A program made the translations under genes and the position numbers. From assembly GCA_030606485.1 (NCBI GenBank), contig JAUWGH010000003.1:240001-272000 (forward strand): a stretch of 32,000 bases of DNA. Direction: 5' to 3'. This document shows positions 319 through 23,668 of the stretch, piece by piece. The notes under the pieces were generated by a model that saw only the letters and a program-made list of their open reading frames with translations, was not told the origin of the DNA and ran no database searches. Numbering within the stretch: position 1 is the stretch's first letter; the number at the start of each line of letters is the position of its first letter. The stretch is from Promethearchaeota archaeon (GTDB lineage Archaea > Asgardarchaeota > Lokiarchaeia > Sigyniarchaeales > SOKP01).

Positions 319-762
319 AATTTTTACTTACTCAACATTTTTTTAATTTTTTATTAATTAAAACTATACTTCTTGACTTATATAAAAATTAAACTCATAA
401 TATAAAATCATTCAACTATTGAATTTTACTAAAAAATCAAATAAAGTAAAGACGATATAATTTCCCATTATTCAAAAATAGAAATTCATTACCTATTTAT
501 AAACTTGAGAAAAGAGCTATTCCAATTTGTAATATAAGAGTAAAAATATTATTGAATCTTTTTTTATGAAAAATTATAGTTCAAAAATTTACCATTTCAA
601 TTTAAATAACGGTATCAGAGTTATTAGTCTTAAACATTTTAAACATATTTTCTAAATGAAGATTTTATTGAAAATTCTTATTAATCAATTTTTTTCATTT
701 CTCTTGTAATTCTCAAATAAATAAGAGAAATCTTAAAATTTACTTAAAACGAAATAAATAGT

Positions 763-1500
763 ATGGTTAAATTAATTTATCATGGTTGTATAAACTTAAG
801 CAAATTACCAAATCTATGTGAAGCGGGAACAGAATTAATCAAATTTCTTGAGCCAGAATATCAAGAGTTAGAAGACCCTCCTTGTTGTGGCTCATTATTA
901 TTTCATACTGACGAGGAGGGGGCAAGAAAGAATTGTAATGAGGTCTATGATTGGTTAAAAAAGAATAATGTAACAGAATTAACAACTATTTGTGCGGGGT
1001 GTTATAATTATTTTGTAACGTTTTATCCACAATATATACCTGAATTTGATGTTAAAATAAATCACATATCACAGTTTCTTTCGAAACCAGAATATATGCA
1101 AATGCTTGATTTGAAATATCCCGGAGAAAAGAAAATAAAAATAACATATCATGATCCATGCCATATGAAAAATGCTCGGATTCCAATATTCGAAGAACCA
1201 AGAGTAATACTAAGTAATATAAAGAATGTTGATTTAATGGCTCTTGAGTGGGAGAGAGAATTATCAACTTGTTGCGGAGCAGGAGCTGGGGTATATTCTT
1301 CGTTTAAGGAGGTCAGTAATTTTACTACAGCAGATATTTTTAGGCAAGTTAAAAAGTCAAGAGCTAAAATTCTTATTACTCCATGTAGCTTTTGCTATGT
1401 ATCGTTTAAAAGACTTGAATCAGAAAAAAATCCACGATTTAAAATATTAAAACTTGAGGAATTCATAAATAAATTGAAAAAAGGAGAGGTGATTGAATAA
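763..1500 (+). CDS. CCG-domain (Fe-S)-binding protein, LutA/GlpC/HdrB-like
   Basis: Two cysteine-rich CCG repeats: PPCCGS...TICAGC and YHDPCH...CCGAGAG...TPCSFC. The stop overlaps the next start (TAATG at 1498-1502). Confidence 0.85.
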   Translation: MVKLIYHGCINLSKLPNLCEAGTELIKFLEPEYQELEDPPCCGSLLFHTDEEGARKNCNEVYDWLKKNNVTELTTICAGCYNYFVTFYPQYIPEFDVKINHISQFLSKPEYMQMLDLKYPGEKKIKITYHDPCHMKNARIPIFEEPRVILSNIKNVDLMALEWERELSTCCGAGAGVYSSFKEVSNFTTADIFRQVKKSRAKILITPCSFCYVSFKRLESEKNPRFKILKLEEFINKLKKGEVIE

Positions 1501-2780
1501 TGACATCAGGAAAAGAATTATATGAAAATAATAAGGAAAAACTTAAGAAACTTCTTGATGAAACGAGCGAAGAGTATCAATTTGCTGATTTTTGGGGTAA
1601 TCTTGCATCAGTTAAAAAGCACCGAGAATTTGATGAGGATACTAAAGAATATGTTGATAAATATGTAGATAAATTAAGACCAATGAGAGAAGAATTAGTA
1701 AATAATCTTGAAAAATATACTGAACAAGCAATGAAATCAATAGAAAAAACTGGCGCCAAAGTTTATCTAGCTAAGACTAATGAGCAAGCTCAAAAATTAT
1801 TTTTACAAGAATTAGGAGATGAACGAACTCTATATAAATCAAAAAGTGCAGATGCAAAAGAAATGGGCATTTTAGATGCTTGTAAAAAAAATGGAATAGA
1901 GGTTATCGAAACAGACCTTGGAGATGTTTTGGTGCAAATGTTTGAATATGAACTGCCATCATATCAATTAGCACCGGGAGTGCATTTTCACCCTAGTCAA
2001 ATTGCAAATAAAATAAAAGAAAAATATAATGTTGATGTAGAACCTAATGGTCCAGCAATCGTTAGTTTTTTTAGAAAAACTCATAGACCGAAGATCCTTA
2101 ATGCAAATATCTCACTAACGTCAGCAAATGCCGTAGCAGCAGATGATGGTTCCATTGTTTTAGTAGAAAATGAGGGAAATATAAGTTTATTAACCCGTCT
2201 GCCTCCTAAACATATTGTAATTTGTGGCATTTCAAAAATTGTTCCCACCGTTTATGATGCATTATTACAGGTAAATATGCAAGAAAGATGGAATACATTA
2301 ATTGGAAGTTATATTTCATTTATTAGAGGTCCGTCCTCAACAAATGATGTCTATGGTCAAAAAGTAATCGGCATGTATGGAGCTCAAGAAGTAGCAATCA
2401 TACTTGTGGATGATTGGAGGACAAAAGCAGTTAAAGAAAATAGCTTTCTTAAAGAATTTCTTCATTGTATAAGTTGTAAGGCGTGCAATTATGTATGCAC
2501 TGCAAGCAGAGCAGTTGGAAATATATACGCTTCAAAAATGGGCCTCGGGGCGTGCGGTATTATAAAAGATTATATTCATAATGGAATTGAATCTGCTGTG
2601 AAAAATGGGTTGTTTTTATGTACTTCTTGCGAAAATTGTAAAAATTTCTGCCCAGTTCAAGTTGATTTACCAAAAATAATGAGAGAATTAAAAAAAATTG
2701 CCGTCAGTAAAAATCTAGCGCCACCACCCTTAAAATCATATCTACAAAATATTACAACTAAAAAAAATCCATTTAAATAA
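1500..2780 (+). CDS. LUD-domain Fe-S protein, LutB/LldF-like (lactate utilization protein B family)
   Basis: LUD motifs KSKS...E, VIETDLGD, SANAVAADDGSIVLVENEGN, GISKIVPT, SFIRGPS, IILVDDWR. Two 4Fe-4S motifs, CISCKACNYVC and CTSCENCKNFCP. GGAGAGGTG SD-like site upstream; translationally coupled to the CCG gene. Confidence 0.85.
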   Translation: MTSGKELYENNKEKLKKLLDETSEEYQFADFWGNLASVKKHREFDEDTKEYVDKYVDKLRPMREELVNNLEKYTEQAMKSIEKTGAKVYLAKTNEQAQKLFLQELGDERTLYKSKSADAKEMGILDACKKNGIEVIETDLGDVLVQMFEYELPSYQLAPGVHFHPSQIANKIKEKYNVDVEPNGPAIVSFFRKTHRPKILNANISLTSANAVAADDGSIVLVENEGNISLLTRLPPKHIVICGISKIVPTVYDALLQVNMQERWNTLIGSYISFIRGPSSTNDVYGQKVIGMYGAQEVAIILVDDWRTKAVKENSFLKEFLHCISCKACNYVCTASRAVGNIYASKMGLGACGIIKDYIHNGIESAVKNGLFLCTSCENCKNFCPVQVDLPKIMRELKKIAVSKNLAPPPLKSYLQNITTKKNPFK

Positions 2781-11040: not shown

Positions 11041-11427
11041 TTGTCTAGTAAGATTAGTACTATTATAAATGTCTTATTAAATGAAGAACCAAATGTAATA
11101 GGGGTAGCTTTAATTGGTAGTGATAATCAAATAAGTTTTCAAACGGAGAACTGGGATTTATCACAAGATTTATCGGGTATATTGAACTTAATTCAAGCCC
11201 AAAGTGGAGTTGGAAGAATTACATTACAGGGGGTTAATTATATGGTTGTTGAGAATACTCCTGAACGAAAAATCGCAACTAATATTAAAGGAAAGGGGCA
11301 TATTATAATTTGTCCTACAGGTGATAACAACGCTGCATTAATGTGTTATATCAGTCCACAAGCCGGTCCTCGTGATGCGTTATTTAACGTGCAAGAATAT
11401 GCAAAAAAATTAAAAAAGAAATTGTAA
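11041..11427 (+). CDS. Asgard profilin (actin-monomer-binding eukaryotic signature protein)
   Basis: 128 aa with a TTG start (in-frame TGA at 11032-34 excludes an upstream start). Motifs QTENWD, QGVNYMVVENTPERKIATNIKGKGH and YISPQAGPRDALFNVQEYA match my recollection of Lokiarchaeota profilins. Confidence 0.85.
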   Translation: MSSKISTIINVLLNEEPNVIGVALIGSDNQISFQTENWDLSQDLSGILNLIQAQSGVGRITLQGVNYMVVENTPERKIATNIKGKGHIIICPTGDNNAALMCYISPQAGPRDALFNVQEYAKKLKKKL

Positions 11428-16212: not shown

Positions 16213-17517
16213 TTAATGGGTTGCACAAGAGATACATGGGTCAAACGATCTTATAATCATTTGCGCTTGTTTTTTTATCTGATTAAAATCCCCAGTTCTT
16301 TCATATAATTTTTGGCTTTGTGTTGTTAGGATTTCATCAATAATTGGCAAATTAATTTCAGTTGCAATAAAAAGCTTCACTTTATCAATTAATCTCTTTT
16401 TATTTACATGATAATAGTGTATGAGAGTTCCTCGAGGTGCTTCAACCATGCCGAGTCCTTCATTATTTCTTAAAAAATTAATGGGACGTATATCATTTTT
16501 TTGTGTCAATTCAGTATCGTCTAGAATTGATAACCCTTCGTAAGAAACAAACATCATTTCTATTAGCCTGATAACGTTTGAGAATAAAATACTATTTTGC
16601 CATTCTTTATTAAAAAGTCCAATATAGGATTGCAGTTCATCTATTCCATAATCATTAATTATTTTATATCGTGCGAGTGGGCCAACAAGAATGTTTTGGT
16701 TGTTTTTTAAATAGAAATCAATTCCACGTATATCCTCCTGCTTATCAAAATATTGCGAATGTTTATATACGGGAAAATCTGCGATAATTTTATTATTTTG
16801 TGCTAATCGTAAGAGTCCATTATACCGGTCATATTTCTCATCATTATGCATTCCCATATAAGCAGGATTTGGTAAGGAATAAACATCAGGAGGATCAAAT
16901 TGAGAAAATATCTCTTGGAATCGCTCAATAATCCATTTTAAATTATTTATAGAATTTTGCAGATATTTCCGTGCAATATTTATTTCTTTTTTGGAAGGAG
17001 AAAAAAATACACCACCGATAATGGGCGTTATTAAATGAACAGACCTTCCACCAAATAAATTCCCAATTTCATTGCCAATTTTTATTAATTCATACATATT
17101 TGAAGTTAATTTGGGATCAAAATGGATTAATTCATTCAGTGAGAGTGGTTTTGGTTGTTTATCCAAAATTACAAAAAGGTCGGGAAATGCTTGAAAAAAG
17201 AAATGCATTGAATGTGATCTTATCAACTCACCAATCATTAATAGTCGTCTCAAAAGAACTGATTGATTTGATGGTTCGACTTCATACATACTCTCTATTG
17301 CTTTACAACTAGCTATTGTCTGTGATGCGTGACACAATCCACATATTCTTGATGCAATTCTAGGAGTATCGATTAGCCTTTTGTCAAGTAAAATATTTTC
17401 AAACCCTCGAAATATCTCAAGATCAAAATTCACACTTGAAATTTCATCTTTCTGAAGTAAAATTTTTATATTTCCATGTCCTTCCACCCGAGTGCATACA
17501 TCAACTACTTTCTTCAT
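16213..17517 (-). CDS. mvhA: [NiFe]-hydrogenase large subunit, group 3 (MvhA-like), atypical
   Basis: TRVEGHG, RGFE, L1 RICGLCHASQ, SHSMHFF..AFPD, GGRSVH, VGPLAR, VEAPRGTLIH and L2 FDPCISCATH followed directly by TAA. Confidence 0.9.
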   Translation of the reverse strand: MKKVVDVCTRVEGHGNIKILLQKDEISSVNFDLEIFRGFENILLDKRLIDTPRIASRICGLCHASQTIASCKAIESMYEVEPSNQSVLLRRLLMIGELIRSHSMHFFFQAFPDLFVILDKQPKPLSLNELIHFDPKLTSNMYELIKIGNEIGNLFGGRSVHLITPIIGGVFFSPSKKEINIARKYLQNSINNLKWIIERFQEIFSQFDPPDVYSLPNPAYMGMHNDEKYDRYNGLLRLAQNNKIIADFPVYKHSQYFDKQEDIRGIDFYLKNNQNILVGPLARYKIINDYGIDELQSYIGLFNKEWQNSILFSNVIRLIEMMFVSYEGLSILDDTELTQKNDIRPINFLRNNEGLGMVEAPRGTLIHYYHVNKKRLIDKVKLFIATEINLPIIDEILTTQSQKLYERTGDFNQIKKQAQMIIRSFDPCISCATH

Positions 17518-17523
17518 AATTTT

Positions 17524-18285
17524 TTACCTCTTGGTTTTTGGTTTTGAATAACGATAGAAAATTCCTTTATATTTCCTTAGACCTTTGGCAAGATTTACAG
17601 TGCTCAAAAAATTAATGGCATTAGAGGTAAAATCGTTTTTAATTGGTCCCATGCACCCATCACAAGGAAGGTTCAATTTAATGCACTTAGATTCACAACC
17701 ATCTCTAGTTATTGGTCCCAAGCATAAAATTCCTCTTTCTAAAAAGCAACGTTTATCTTTATTTTCGATATCTAAGTTATATTCTCTAGGCATTAGTTTA
17801 TTAATTCGTTTCATAAATTTGCTTTCAATATTATCAGTTCTAAATTCGCAATCTACACAAACATTTTTTTCAGGCAAAATAATCTCTTTATTTTCTAGCA
17901 GTCTAATAATACAATTGCCTAATAATTTAGAAGGTGGTGGACATCCAGGAATTATTCCATCTATTTCTATATAATTGGATATGGGTTCTGCTTCTTTTAC
18001 AGTGGAAAGTGCAAGCATTCCACCAAAAGCAGCACAAGTTCCTAAAGCAATTACTCTCTTGGATTTACTCCGAATATTTTTAAGAATATCGATTTGTTTT
18101 TCCTCTGAAACACATCCCTCAATTAAAGCGATATCATTTTCAGAGATATTATTTTCATCTCTCATAAATGAACAACGAACGAGATTTACCTTTTCAAGAA
18201 ATTGAGGAAAGATATCTAATGAAATCATTGTTGAGATACAACCACTACAAGAAGTCAATGATTCGATTAAGAAACTAGGTTTCAT
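17524..18285 (-). CDS. mvhG: [NiFe]-hydrogenase small subunit, group 3 (MvhG-like)
   Basis: LTSCSGC, IEGCV, LGTCAAFGG, IPGCPP, CVDC and CFLERGILCLGPITRDGCESKC...PCDGCMGP; no Tat signal. Start moved from 18312 to the ATG at 18285, which has GAGGAG just upstream and overlaps the previous stop by 11 nt. Confidence 0.88.
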   Translation of the reverse strand: MKPSFLIESLTSCSGCISTMISLDIFPQFLEKVNLVRCSFMRDENNISENDIALIEGCVSEEKQIDILKNIRSKSKRVIALGTCAAFGGMLALSTVKEAEPISNYIEIDGIIPGCPPPSKLLGNCIIRLLENKEIILPEKNVCVDCEFRTDNIESKFMKRINKLMPREYNLDIENKDKRCFLERGILCLGPITRDGCESKCIKLNLPCDGCMGPIKNDFTSNAINFLSTVNLAKGLRKYKGIFYRYSKPKTKR

Positions 18286-20806
18286 TTTTAATCTCCTCTG
18301 ATAATCTTTCATAAAAAGAATTTACAATCTCTGCAAATTTATTGCCCTCAACTGCACTTAATGATTTACGAATTATTCGATTTTCAGCAATAGGACCTAA
18401 AACTTCATTTAAAAGTTTAACTTTTTGTCTTACTTGATCCACACTATTTATATATCGGCAGGAATCTTTTCTGCAACCAATAATCATTACTCCATCAAAT
18501 CCTAATTTGAAAGATTTAAAAATTAAACTCGTATCTACCCGCCCTGTGCATGGAACTTTAATAATAAAGATGTTGGGATTATAGGAAAGTTTCTTTAAGC
18601 CAGCTTCATCGGCTGCACCATATCCGCAAGAACGACAGCAGAATGCGATTATTTTTGGTCGTAAATTGAATTTAGAAAATACCTCAATTGATTTCAGTAT
18701 CTTTTCAGTAGTATCAATGTTTAAGTCAAGTGCATTTGTGGGACAAACACTTACACACGTTCCGCATCCTTTACATTTGAATTTATCAATCGCAATTTTG
18801 TCTGCCTCAATTGTGATTGCATTGTAAGGACAAGATAAAATGCATAAACCACACAATCCGCAATTCTCTTCTTTGATTTCGATACCGCTAAATTCTGTAA
18901 TTAAATAATCATTTGATAACAATGAAATAATTTTAATAGCTACATCATTGGAAGATGAGATCACTGAATTATAATCTAATGGACCTTTAATTGAACCGAC
19001 ACCAAAAATACCTGATGCCAGCGTTTCCTCACTCATAAAACCATGATCGTCTAATGTAAAATCTAAAGTCTTTCGAAGTTCTTTTAAATCTTTATTTGGA
19101 ACAAAATTGACATTTAACACGATCATATCGGAGGGATACTGCTCTGAATCAGAAATAATTATTTTCTTATTTCCTTTCTCTATGATTTCAATATTTTCAT
19201 AATAATGAAATCTTTCATCAGATGGATCTAACATAAATCCAGTAGATTTCTTAATTTTATTTAAATCAAAAAATATGTTAATTTTACAATCAGGAAGTTG
19301 TGAATAAATAGATTCTAAATACTTTATGGCGAGAGTACCACAATATTCCGCTAAATAATCAAATGGGCCTAAACATTGAATTATTGAGATTGATTTCGGT
19401 GGTTTTCCATCAGATAATTTCAAAATTTTACCTTCCGTTGGACCATCCGCTGATAAGATACGTTCAAATTCCGGTGATATAATTACATCATTTTGTGGAT
19501 TATAGTTATAAGGTTTTAATTCAGAATAAAAATCCGCACCAATTGCAATTACTTTTGTTCCAACTCTAATCCTTATTTTTTCAAATTTCTGATCCAAATC
19601 AATCGCATTATTATTGCAAGCTCGCTCGCAAATTCTACATTGTCGGCAAGTTTCAATATCTTCTTGGTCAATCACTGGAGCATATGGATAAGATTGAACA
19701 TAAGGAATATAAATTAACTTCCTTGGTGTTAATCCAAATTCATATTGATTACTTTTTTCTATACTGCAAATTTCAATACATCTTTTACATCCAGTACATT
19801 TCTTTTCATCAACATATCGGGGTTTTTTAACCAAATCAATTGAAAAATTTCCTACTTCACCTGATACTTTTTCTATTTCAGTATTAGTTAAAATTTCGAT
19901 ATTTTTTTCTTTAACAACCTCACCTATCATTTCTGACATAAGACAAATTGAACAATCACCCATTCCATAAATTTTACTCCACCTGGCAATTTTACCTCCT
20001 AATGTTGGGGATTTTTCAATTAAATAAACCTTAATCCCAGCCCTTGCTAGACTTAATGCAAGTGTCATCCCTGCAATTCCGCCACCCAAAATAGCACAAC
20101 TTTTTTCAATCTTAACTGTTTTTACTTGAACATCTTTTTGTAATGCAACACGCTCAACTGCTGCTTCAACTAAAATTTGTGCTTTTTTTAACGCCAGAGT
20201 AGGTTCTTTTAGATGCACCCAGCAACATTGCTCTCTAATATTGGCAATTTCAATATTAACTTTATCAATAACTCCATCAAAAATTCTTTCAAATATATGC
20301 AAATGAGTTTTTGGAGAACACGCAGCAATAACAATCTTATTTAAATAATTATCTTTAGACCATTTAGTAATCTTTTCTAAATTTTTCTCTTGACAAAGAT
20401 TATCAAAAATCTTCACAGCAACTACATTGGGAATTCTTTTAATATAATTTTCAAGTGCATTAATACTTATAAGATTAGAAATTTCAGTATTGCATTTACA
20501 AATAATAACCCCCACTCGATTAATCTCACTACCAACCTTATCCAAATATTCAATATCCTCCCCTGCCAAAATTTTTTTATCAATATTCATTAAATTTATA
20601 ACTCGTTTTCCGTCCTCCGTGAGAAAATAGGATTTTTTATCTTTATTTATTAAAGTCCCAAGTTTTTTAAGGTGAAAGTTTAATTGCCCTGTAGTCTCTA
20701 AACCTAACCTATCCATCAAATCCGTGTAAGGAATATAACCTTCTTTATCAAGAAGTAATAAAACCCTCCTCCTAAATGGATGAGATAAAATTGAATATAT
20801 ATCCAT
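18275..20806 (-). CDS. hdrA: Fusion: ArsR-like winged-helix DNA-binding domain + HdrA-like flavoprotein + MvhD [2Fe-2S] domain
   Basis: aa 1-75: LSHPFRRRVLLLL...YTDLMDRLGLETTGQLNFHLKKL...YFLTEDG (wHTH). Then HdrA motifs RVGVIICKC, AACSPKTH, NIREQCCWVH, GGGIAG, DCSIC, inserted 2x[4Fe-4S], EFER..GPTEG and C-terminal 2x[4Fe-4S]. The last about 128 aa are MvhD (FCCRSCGY, VPCTGRVD, GCRKDSCRY). GGGAG SD-like site upstream. Confidence 0.88.
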   Translation of the reverse strand: MDIYSILSHPFRRRVLLLLDKEGYIPYTDLMDRLGLETTGQLNFHLKKLGTLINKDKKSYFLTEDGKRVINLMNIDKKILAGEDIEYLDKVGSEINRVGVIICKCNTEISNLISINALENYIKRIPNVVAVKIFDNLCQEKNLEKITKWSKDNYLNKIVIAACSPKTHLHIFERIFDGVIDKVNIEIANIREQCCWVHLKEPTLALKKAQILVEAAVERVALQKDVQVKTVKIEKSCAILGGGIAGMTLALSLARAGIKVYLIEKSPTLGGKIARWSKIYGMGDCSICLMSEMIGEVVKEKNIEILTNTEIEKVSGEVGNFSIDLVKKPRYVDEKKCTGCKRCIEICSIEKSNQYEFGLTPRKLIYIPYVQSYPYAPVIDQEDIETCRQCRICERACNNNAIDLDQKFEKIRIRVGTKVIAIGADFYSELKPYNYNPQNDVIISPEFERILSADGPTEGKILKLSDGKPPKSISIIQCLGPFDYLAEYCGTLAIKYLESIYSQLPDCKINIFFDLNKIKKSTGFMLDPSDERFHYYENIEIIEKGNKKIIISDSEQYPSDMIVLNVNFVPNKDLKELRKTLDFTLDDHGFMSEETLASGIFGVGSIKGPLDYNSVISSSNDVAIKIISLLSNDYLITEFSGIEIKEENCGLCGLCILSCPYNAITIEADKIAIDKFKCKGCGTCVSVCPTNALDLNIDTTEKILKSIEVFSKFNLRPKIIAFCCRSCGYGAADEAGLKKLSYNPNIFIIKVPCTGRVDTSLIFKSFKLGFDGVMIIGCRKDSCRYINSVDQVRQKVKLLNEVLGPIAENRIIRKSLSAVEGNKFAEIVNSFYERLSEEIKNET

Positions 20807-21985: not shown

Positions 21986-23668
21986 TTGCAAGTATTAGAA
22001 TTAAAACCTTTAAAAAATAAAAAATTAGAAATAATATTAATGGAAAGTGAGTTTCCAATTAGTTGGTGGTTGGAACCAACAAAAGAACAGCTGGAAGAAT
22101 CTTTAAATTTCAGTTTTATGTCAAAGGATTATCTCAAGCTTATTGAAGACATGTTGCGGAAATATCAACCTAATTTTGTAGCTGAAGAACGAGGGTTGCG
22201 TGAAAGTGATAAACTTCATTATGATGATGCTTTTATTGATTTATTTAGAGATTTTAAAATACTATATAAAATGGTAGATATTAATGAAAATGCTTTGGGG
22301 TATCTCGCTTCAACAATAGATAAAAATGCAGATCTTCTAAATGGAATAAAAGCAGAAATTAAAAAAATCAAAAAAAAGGGAGGTTTTCATCCTAATGATC
22401 ACTATTTCCAGCAATTAATTGTTTGGGAGGACTATTTACAGAGTGAATACAAAAATCAAGAGGAAGAAATAAGGTATAAGATCCGAGAAGCTTGGATGAT
22501 GATGGGGGTTCTTGACATAGCAAAAGAACAGAAAGAGAAAAACTTAAAATGTCTATTTATTTGTGATAAAAGGCATTTTGATGGTATTACAAGCCTTGCA
22601 GATGATCTGGGAATAGAAGTTCAAAAATTTGAAGTTAAGAAAAGTATTTTAAATATTGGGGATTTAGCGAAGCCAAATACGATAAAAGAGTTTATAAAGG
22701 TATCACTTATGGAAGTCGCCCCCATTAAAATAAAGAAAACAAGTTCCTTAGAGAAAATTGTGTATTTTCTTGATACAGACGAGCATGCCTCTCCCTTTGA
22801 TATTAATATGGCCTATGATGCAGGATTTGATGTAGTTATTCCTATTAACAATGTAAAAGCTGAACAAGTGCCACAACTCGTGCAAGATGCGATATTCTCG
22901 CGAAAGCCAAAAGCTCCGACCAGTTTTTTCATTGGTGGAGCGAATGTAAGGGAAGGCGAAAAAATTGCAAAAGAAGTTGTAAAGTCGTTGGTACCACCCT
23001 TCGAAGTCCCTGTGGTCATAGACCCGCGAGGGTCTCATACTACGGCTTCGGCAGTTGTTGCAAAAACTTTGGAAGCAGCAATGAAAAATGGGATAAATAA
23101 TATTTCTGGAAAAAAAGCGGTCATATTAGGAACTGGTCCTGTCGGGCGAATTGCAGCAATAATTGCGGCAAAACAAAATTGTGAAACAGTTTTAGTTGAG
23201 ACATGGGATAAGGGAAGTGAAAAAGCTGTAAAGCAGCTTGCAAAAGAATTAACTAAAGGGGCAGGAGAAGGTGCTTCTGAAATACTTGGAGAATTCGCAA
23301 TAACGGATGAGAAAAAATTTGAAATAATAAAAGATGCTGATATAATCTGGTCTTTAGCAGCTGCAGGAGTTCAAATCTTATCAGAAGAATTGATGAGTAA
23401 ATTACCAAAAAATAAAATCGTAATAGACATTAATTTAGTTCCGCCATACGGAATTGAAGGAATAAAACCAAAACACGATAATAAAGAAATATATCCAGGA
23501 ATTTTTGGAATTGGAGCATTAGGAATAGGTCATTTAAAATCTAATACGGAAAGTTCTATTCTTAAAGAAGCTACCAAAACCAAAGGAAAGAAAATATTCG
23601 ATTATAACATTGCTTTTGAAATTGCAAAAGAATTATTATTTGGTAAAGAGATTACAATATCTCGTTAA
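21986..23668 (+). CDS. Unknown N-domain fused to NAD(P)-dependent methylene-H4MPT dehydrogenase (MtdA/MtdB family), copy B1
   Basis: TTG start with GGAGGT SD. From about nt 22754: DTDEHASPFDINMAYDAG, LVQDAIFSR, FIGG, PPF, DPRGSHTTASA (Mtd N-domain), then Rossmann GTGPVG and DINLVPPYGIEG. Confidence 0.85.
   Translation: MQVLELKPLKNKKLEIILMESEFPISWWLEPTKEQLEESLNFSFMSKDYLKLIEDMLRKYQPNFVAEERGLRESDKLHYDDAFIDLFRDFKILYKMVDINENALGYLASTIDKNADLLNGIKAEIKKIKKKGGFHPNDHYFQQLIVWEDYLQSEYKNQEEEIRYKIREAWMMMGVLDIAKEQKEKNLKCLFICDKRHFDGITSLADDLGIEVQKFEVKKSILNIGDLAKPNTIKEFIKVSLMEVAPIKIKKTSSLEKIVYFLDTDEHASPFDINMAYDAGFDVVIPINNVKAEQVPQLVQDAIFSRKPKAPTSFFIGGANVREGEKIAKEVVKSLVPPFEVPVVIDPRGSHTTASAVVAKTLEAAMKNGINNISGKKAVILGTGPVGRIAAIIAAKQNCETVLVETWDKGSEKAVKQLAKELTKGAGEGASEILGEFAITDEKKFEIIKDADIIWSLAAAGVQILSEELMSKLPKNKIVIDINLVPPYGIEGIKPKHDNKEIYPGIFGIGALGIGHLKSNTESSILKEATKTKGKKIFDYNIAFEIAKELLFGKEITISR

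Follow-up and report, generated by a model that had tools for sequence, protein, structure and literature searches.

A hydrogenase operon with a non-canonical L1 motif

The stretch of DNA analyzed here (hereafter, the window) comprises 32,000 nucleotides of contig JAUWGH010000003.1 (positions 240,001 to 272,000 of the forward strand; assembly GCA_030606485.1), from a Promethearchaeota archaeon. It contains a minus-strand operon that encodes, in this order, a fusion protein consisting of a winged helix, HdrA, and MvhD (P0003), an MvhG-like hydrogenase small subunit (P0002), an Mvh-like [NiFe] hydrogenase large subunit (P0001), and a membrane protein (P0004; Table 1). Our main subject is the last residue of the L1 motif of the large subunit, where glutamine (Gln66) takes the place of the canonical histidine (His).

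The large subunit, the translation of which contains PRIASRICGLCHASQTIAS, matches the Pfam family NiFeSe_Hases (PF00374) with 94 bits, the cut-off being 25.8, and a HMMER search against all PDB sequences yields MvhA as the best match (5odc_F; E 1.9e-50), aligned over the full length. The small subunit, when aligned to MvhG (5odc_E; E 1.1e-35), keeps all 12 cysteines for the three [4Fe-4S] clusters. The NCBIfam scores of the operon proteins fall far below every equivalog cut-off: P0001 scores 170 bits against VhuA (cut-off 800), and the best match of P0003, HdrA2 (NF040770), reaches 599 bits (cut-off 1100).

P0001 departs from the L1 ending of the PF00374 hydrogenases, RxCGxCxxxH. In the HMMER alignments, Gln66 is opposite the His of RICGICQVAH in MvhA and is also opposite His in 7t2r_D and 9sfi_g. 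Conversely, in the MAFFT alignment, it shares a column with Gln67 of HoxC (RVCGICSVSQ), translated from Cupriavidus necator pHG1. An earlier note on the window, made from the letters alone, had read the CAG codon as ending an RxCGxCxxxQ motif, had given Gln for the same place in HoxC, and had pointed to SHxxHF..AxPD, GGRxxH, and VGPLAR further along the chain. The translation and the alignments to MvhA and HoxC confirm these observations, with SHSMHFFFQAFPD, GGRSVH, and VGPLAR all present in P0001, along with EAPRG. Two independent assemblies from the same genus (L011 and L012; 97–98% identity) carry the identical motif and the same CAG codon, which rules out a local sequencing error.

Table 1. 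Coordinates of the operon genes, motifs, and substituted residues in the window, and of histidine kinase genes in related loci
Feature	Position	Strand	Basis
P0001, [NiFe] hydrogenase large subunit, Mvh-like, 434 residues	16213..17517	minus	PF00374, MvhA match
L1 motif RICGLCHASQ (R57-Q66), including Ni-binding Cys59 and Cys62	17320..17349	minus	aligned to L1 of MvhA and HoxC
Gln66, codon CAG, in place of the canonical L1 His	17320..17322	minus	translation
Cys8, four residues before proton-gate Glu12 of RVEGH	17494..17496	minus	100% in the family, 2% in others
Leu61 (CG-L-C), gate position, equivalent to HoxC Ile62 and prototypical Val74	17335..17337	minus	alignment
Gln109 (HFFFQ), second gate position, equivalent to HoxC Phe110 and prototypical Leu122	17191..17193	minus	alignment
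Gln419 (QMIIRSFDPC), invariant in the family	16261..16263	minus	74% of the other group 3 enzymes have Glu
C-terminal DPCISCATH, stop codon directly after, no endopeptidase extension	16213..16242	minus	translation
P0002, MvhG-like small subunit, 262 residues	17524..18312	minus	PF01058, 5odc_E alignment
P0003, fusion of winged helix, HdrA, and MvhD	18275..20806	minus	domain and PDB matches
Winged helix of P0003, residues 1-75	20582-20806	minus	DUF7347; weak HTH_24 and HTH_20 matches
P0004, membrane protein, 235 residues, 46 nucleotides downstream of P0001	15459..16166	minus	kinase-less relative of membrane histidine kinases
Downstream membrane histidine kinases of related loci	L015:1873-2943, L016:7393-8463, L024:7331-8437, L025:7328-8434		

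Glutamine is the rule in an Asgard hydrogenase family

A HMMER search over 1.84 billion cluster representatives returned 2593 relatives of P0001, with a sharp fall of the scores after the first 18 or so. In the MAFFT alignment of 142 full-length relatives, the L1 column holds His in 127 rows, Tyr in 8, and Gln in 7, HoxC being one of the Gln rows. A denser search of clusters at 90% identity yielded 120 close relatives (52–97% identity to P0001). L1 ends with Gln in 119 of these and with His in one, and all 119 readable C-termini stop at the terminal His. Likewise, among the GTDB species representatives, all Asgard orthologs with at least 44% identity have Gln, whereas the orthologs from Frey- and Jordarchaeia, at 38% identity, have RICGLCSSAH and a C-terminal extension of 7–8 residues. 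Of the 37 loci in which the CGLC form of the motif was looked for, 35 have Gln. Both Gln codons are used: 32 related loci have CAA, and the genus of the P0001 genome has CAG. The earlier note had left room for Gln being common among ordinary group 3 enzymes; this is not the case, as none of the 129 other group 3 enzymes sampled has Gln, the residue being His or, in one clade, Tyr.

A single base separates His from Gln codons, and rare members of the family (P0005 and P0165) have His, as might be expected of a neutral or erroneous change, be it an assembly error, drift, or decay of the gene. We nevertheless regard such an origin of Gln66 as highly improbable: Gln is kept across 44–60% identity with both Gln codons, the reading frames are intact, other pocket positions co-vary with it (see below), and independent assemblies agree. 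By the pattern of sequence conservation, Gln66 is a fixed, clade-wide trait of this Asgard enzyme family that is kept by selection, because one base change, a transversion, would restore His.

Strong orthologs of the Gln type are present in roughly 90 of the 135 sampled genomes of the host family (hand count), and two more families of that class have them as well; no such ortholog was found in three single-contig genomes of the same order, which may include the cultured Lokiarchaeia. The submitter labels of the close records, which were not reconciled with the taxonomy used here, span Loki-, Thor-, Hermod-, Hod-, Heimdall-, and Odinarchaeota. DNA of the operon occurs in metagenome runs of cold seeps and marine sediments from about 10 studies; an expression look-up listed no RNA dataset as carrying it. 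In four DNA runs, the contigs spanned 16213-17312, which stops short of the Gln66 codon.

The L1 His has been described as conserved in all [NiFe] hydrogenases except the sensors (PMC5665086). In the literature on Asgard hydrogenases, we found no mention of the L1 motif; the papers found on group 3c enzymes treat them at the level of annotation, without reference to Gln, and published Asgard metabolic reconstructions take these genes as ordinary MvhADG-HdrABC (PMC11291895). To judge by this literature, the swap had been reported previously only in bacterial H2 sensors.

Two further observations came from these searches. The Tyr rows (P0060, P0061, P0075, P0100, P0102, P0121, P0137, and P0141; loci L068, L070, L081, and L088), which are group-3b-like large subunits with the motif RICGICPVAY from records labeled as Aquificales, Binatia, Gammaproteobacteria, and Acidimicrobiia, group together with good support (99*). 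This clade is a second natural exception to the supposedly invariant L1 His. Separately, a 9.8-kb contig labeled Candidatus Deferrimicrobium (L013; DATKTP010000041.1) carries an operon of fusion, small subunit, and large subunit genes with 60% identity and Gln; most likely, it is a mis-binned Asgard contig.

Independent origin of the L1 glutamine

In the maximum-likelihood tree of the 142 rows, P0001 belongs to a 7-row clade (Shimodaira–Hasegawa-like approximate likelihood ratio test (SH-aLRT) support 99), in which 6 rows have Gln. The nearest outgroups (P0009 and P0012) carry His, and the whole set is an 18-row clade (100) within group 3. Among these 142 rows, the 18-row clade sits beside a clade that includes HoxH and the Vhu-type paralog from the P0001 genome. 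HoxC, a group 2b enzyme (labeled 2c in PMC11023054), is far from the P0001 clade and pairs with the group 1 membrane-bound HoxG (100). At least four changes of the L1 residue are required on the tree. Forcing the Gln clade and HoxC together lowers the log-likelihood by 103.9, and this topology is rejected by the approximately unbiased (AU) test (p-AU 2.6e-12; 39-row subset, LG+G4, with the tested clade named after the first tree was seen).

On this phylogeny, the Asgard Gln is convergent, with an origin separate from that in the bacterial H2 sensors, because HoxC falls with HoxG and the AU test rejects its union with the Gln clade. The same results reject acquisition of Gln by transfer from group 2b, and they agree with the earlier note, which had placed the chain in group 3 rather than group 2b and had proposed convergence. 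The Asgard family breaks the rule of the invariant His by convergence and offers a natural experiment on the effect of a His-to-Gln change at the Ni-Fe site.

As for the classification, MvhA/VhuA are the nearest relatives of P0001, the small subunit is of the MvhG type, MvhD is present, and there is a genetic link to HdrA, all of which are traits of group 3c; partnership with HdrBC through the HA4 cluster motif, another such trait, is lacking. The characterized MvhAGD-HdrABC complexes of methanogens (5ODC and 9SW2) are the best solved matches for all three Asgard proteins, even though identity is only about 30% and the Asgard proteins form a separate, well-supported clade. By its sequence relationships, P0001 probably belongs to a branch of the Mvh (group 3c) [NiFe] hydrogenases that is specific to Asgard archaea.

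A probable remodeling of the active-site pocket

The metal-binding residues Cys59, Cys62, Cys428, and Cys431, which form two CxxC pairs (RxCGxC and DPCxxC), are invariant in the Gln family. Glu12 of the proton gate (RVEGH), Arg362 (EAPRG), and the terminal His434 are invariant or nearly so, and GGRxxH is kept as well. Against this conserved background, we set 119 members of the family beside 129 group 3 enzymes from outside it. Few positions hold a residue present in at least 90% of the family and at most 5% of the others, and these include Cys8, Gln66, Gln109, and Gln419. Gln109 occurs in 94% of the family but in none of the other enzymes, where Leu prevails (72%). Leu61 is found in nearly all family members, whereas most of the other group 3 enzymes have Ile or Val. 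Compared with MvhA, the Asgard enzyme has Gln for the L1 His, Gln109 at the gate, and Gln419 for Glu, and lacks the C-terminal extension.

Positions 61 and 109 correspond to two gate positions that shape the bottleneck of the gas channel, where substitutions alter both reactivation after O2 exposure and catalytic bias; in H2 sensors, the gate consists of Ile and Phe, and the channel is narrowed (PMC11023054). HoxC of the C. necator HoxBC sensor resembles P0001 in the L1 Gln, in a Gln that precedes the C-terminal Cys motif by nine residues (QHIVRSFDPC, compared to QMIIRSFDPC in P0001), and in ending at the terminal His. However, the two proteins are not related by descent, and the sensor gate (Ile62/Phe110 in HoxC) is not reproduced in P0001 (Leu61/Gln109). 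The partners differ as well: HoxC works with a soluble PAS histidine kinase and a sigma-54 regulator, whereas the Asgard subunit is accompanied by the HdrA-MvhD fusion with its winged helix and, in some relatives, by a membrane kinase. The suggestion in the earlier note of convergence on a sensor-type active site holds only in part, as the presence of Gln does not by itself imply such a site. The convergent Gln, Gln419, and the missing extension are consistent with it, but the gate is not, and Gln is the rule in a family in which the chain to the HdrA flavin is intact.

The HdrA-MvhD fusion and its neighborhood

The HdrA part of P0003 (residues 94–709) matches solved HdrA structures at E 3e-113 to 2e-120, and the MvhD part (residues 716–836) matches solved MvhD at E 1.5e-27, with all MvhD cysteines kept. 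The flavin adenine dinucleotide (FAD) motif, the Cys pair (DCSIC; general form DCSxC), and the ligands of HA1, HA2, HA3, HA5, and HA6 are all retained, as in MvhAGD-HdrABC, with which the Asgard complex also shares the MvhG and MvhD iron-sulfur ligands. In contrast to that system, HdrA and MvhD are fused behind a winged helix, HA4 is lost, the operon has no hdrBC, and an FrhB-like gene is often located upstream.

All Gln-linked fusions, like their Jordarchaeial sister, have a degenerate HA4 motif (C..C..CC; about residues 475–499 of P0003), whereas the winged-helix fusions linked to His-type subunits, in Bathyarchaeota and at other Asgard loci, retain it. The loss is confined to this motif: we also considered a broad erosion of the flavin half of HdrA and rejected it because good alignments were obtained for the FAD motif, the Cys pair, and the ferredoxin inserts. 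In a 2026 cryo-electron microscopy study, HA4 was assigned to the high-potential branch that leads from FAD to HdrBC, and the Cys pair was identified as the point of electron entry from MvhD (PMC13580544). Neither hdrB nor hdrC was found in the operon or beside it, which fits the loss of HA4. The Asgard complex looks like a hydrogenase that would feed a flavin of the bifurcating type without the HdrBC outlet.

The order of the fusion, small subunit, and large subunit genes is conserved in all orthologous loci with enough DNA, and the winged helix is fused to HdrA in every such locus with enough upstream DNA. His-type large subunits, too, occur with the same winged-helix-HdrA-MvhD fusion, namely, in Jordarchaeia (L038), in Bathyarchaeota (L044), and at further Asgard loci (L063 and L079). 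Thus, the fusion predates Gln and is separable from it, and we rejected the possibility that the two emerged as a single coupled innovation. HdrA2 of Methanosarcina shows the same order of HdrA and MvhD in a fusion, but its partner is HdrB2C2 and not a hydrogenase; an N-terminal winged helix and the loss of HA4 set the Asgard form apart.

An FrhB-like gene is located directly upstream of the operon in 11 loci, about a third of the relatives; in the P0001 genome, 11 FrhB paralogs are encoded elsewhere. Downstream of the large subunit gene, in four species, there is a gene for a membrane histidine kinase (a DUF4118-like membrane domain followed by HATPase_c) on the same strand, at a distance of 28–136 nucleotides. 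The kinase-less relative of the P0004 type is found in the window and in its genus. A second kinase type is encoded 3–4 kb downstream in L014, L021, and L024.

A probable working hydrogenase or a possible regulator

The reading that we favor, with somewhat better than even confidence, is that the complex is a working, HdrBC-independent, flavin-based bifurcating or confurcating hydrogenase rather than a sensor of the HoxBC type. Under this proposal, the large subunit would still bind the Ni-Fe center via Cys59, Cys62, Cys428, and Cys431. By analogy with group 1 structures and HoxC, the amide of Gln66, a second-sphere residue, could take over the hydrogen bond that the canonical His makes to the sulfur of an active-site Cys. 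Together with Leu61, Gln109, Gln419, and Cys8, Gln66 would create a remodeled, more polar pocket that may tune redox potential, catalytic bias, or access of inhibitors or H2 without abolishing catalysis. Given the motifs that are present, electrons would pass from the three MvhG-like [4Fe-4S] clusters to the MvhD [2Fe-2S] cluster, then to the Cys pair (DCSIC), and on to the HdrA FAD. Beyond the FAD, the low-potential branch (HA3, HA5, and HA6) is intact, whereas the HA4 branch is lost. Because HA4 feeds HdrBC in methanogens, the high-potential partner would not be a heterodisulfide reductase but, probably, the FrhB-like flavo-iron-sulfur subunit. Such a complex could either evolve or consume H2.

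Several observations weigh against this proposal. The spatial places of Gln66, Gln109, and Gln419 are transferred by alignment. Three HoxC-like traits, Gln66, Gln419, and the absence of a C-terminal extension, coincide in one protein. The conserved winged helix at the N-terminus of HdrA has no obvious catalytic role, and the operon is followed by a membrane histidine kinase gene in four species and by the gene of its kinase-less relative, P0004, in the window. Finally, genes for maturation of the Ni-Fe center are missing from some genomes with intact Gln-type genes, as described below.

The HoxC-like traits would be expected of an archaeal sensor-regulator of H2, or of H2 and redox state, in which a hydrogenase module with low turnover reduces MvhD-HdrA, and the redox state of HdrA is relayed to DNA binding by the winged helix or to signaling by the membrane kinase, so that transcription follows the partial pressure of H2. 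The presence of the winged helix (DUF7347) in every orthologous locus where it could be seen, the kinase directly downstream in L015, L016, L024, and L025, with P0004 as its kinase-less counterpart, and the lack of both adjacent hdrBC and HA4 point in the same direction. However, the winged-helix fusion also occurs with His-type large subunits, the Ile/Phe gate is not reproduced, the kinase is found in only about 7 of 33 loci, and the full set of bifurcation-type cofactors together with the linked FrhB-like subunit exceeds the needs of a sensor. Furthermore, even in HoxC, the Gln "seems not to be involved in H2 sensing" (PMC5665086), and several near-complete genomes contain no other hydrogenase to regulate. 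On balance, we consider a sensor-regulator of this kind possible but rather unlikely. The more specific version, an H2-responsive regulator assembled from bifurcation parts, in which a convergently sensor-like pocket signals via MvhD-HdrA to the fused winged helix and, where the lineage has one, also to a membrane kinase, appears still more doubtful; if correct, it would provide syntrophic Asgard archaea with a direct transcriptional read-out of H2.

The maturation genes bear on a different alternative, namely, that the protein lacks a standard NiFe(CN)2CO center, or does not depend on Hyp, and serves as a hydrogenase-derived redox or scaffold module, with Gln66, Gln109, Gln419, and Cys8 reflecting a different cofactor or ligand. 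Among the 135 genomes of the host family, all of them metagenome bins, 115 encode HypD; of the remaining 20, 15 carry the Gln-type gene. HypC, HypD, and HypF were not found in G199 (99% complete), G209 (97%), G222 (95%, two copies of the Gln-type gene), and G239 (92%), and HypD and HypF were not found in G264 (95%); in the first four genomes, the Gln-type genes are intact, with all motifs, and G264 likewise retains an intact operon. The P0001 genome has hypC, hypD, and hypF, with hypD and hypF 6 kb apart and hypC on another contig, so that the loss of one contig would not remove all three. HypD is missing in 8 of the 18 genomes that have the Gln-type gene without the selenocysteine-type paralog (see below), compared to 8 of about 105 with the paralog (hand counts). 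Unless the bins are incomplete, the lack of Hyp genes next to intact Gln-type genes does not sit easily with normal maturation of a Ni-Fe center.

In many relatives, however, hypD lies within 3–30 kb of the selenocysteine-type locus, so that the hyp genes and this locus may drop out of bins together. Moreover, ten genomes in which the Gln-type protein is the sole [NiFe] homolog keep HypD, and no variation is seen in the four metal-binding cysteines, the Glu of the proton gate, the Arg of EAPRG, or the terminal His. We accordingly assign a low probability to a module devoid of the standard center or of Hyp-dependent maturation.

Current metabolic models of Asgard archaea that depend on H2 or evolve it treat the enzyme as ordinary MvhADG-HdrABC, and such models bear on syntrophy scenarios for the origin of eukaryotes. 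The present data argue otherwise. With HA4 lost, the complex is predicted to be unable to feed HdrBC. Given the lack of this outlet, the altered pocket, and the domain of a DNA-binding type, the physiological role, direction, and H2 affinity of the complex need to be measured rather than assumed. In several genomes of the host family with 92–99% completeness, the Gln-type enzyme is the only hydrogenase found, a point in favor of a working enzyme: it is the sole match to PF00374, PF00346, or PF02906 in G199, G264, and G239 and, likewise, in G162 (96% complete), G180 (93%), and G273 (93%), the latter three of which keep HypD.

Other hydrogenase homologs and neighboring genes

The P0001 genome encodes a second, split group 3 hydrogenase (L001; C5:251882-255118, at 1384-2691 and about 2754-2900). 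Its large subunit has the normal L1 motif RICGICPIPH but ends without the C-terminal Cys motif; the small open reading frame (ORF) downstream contains ...YDC-TGA-LSCAAH..., with an in-frame TGA at the position of the first Cys. From these signatures, L001 is identified as a VhuA/VhuU-like selenocysteine [NiFeSe] enzyme, and orthologs with 80–90% identity are present in most genomes of the host family. G199, G264, and G187 encode a protease of the HycI type even though there is no extension on the Gln-type subunit for it to remove.

Another locus in the same genome (L005; C10:855697-858891, at 736-2280, minus strand) encodes a 514-residue large subunit similar to NuoCD and group 4 enzymes. The N-terminal Cys pair is degenerate (EKICSTSSFHH), whereas the C-terminus keeps DLCFNCIDL; the product is probably not a Ni-binding hydrogenase.

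Elsewhere in the window, a 560-residue ORF (21986-23668, plus strand), divergent from the hydrogenase operon, contains a central PF09176 domain (methylene-tetrahydromethanopterin dehydrogenase, N-terminal), and a 128-residue ORF (11041-11427, plus strand) matches Pfam Profilin with an E value of 1.2e-5, at the cut-off. Profilin is an Asgard signature protein, which fits the Promethearchaeota labels of the closest records.

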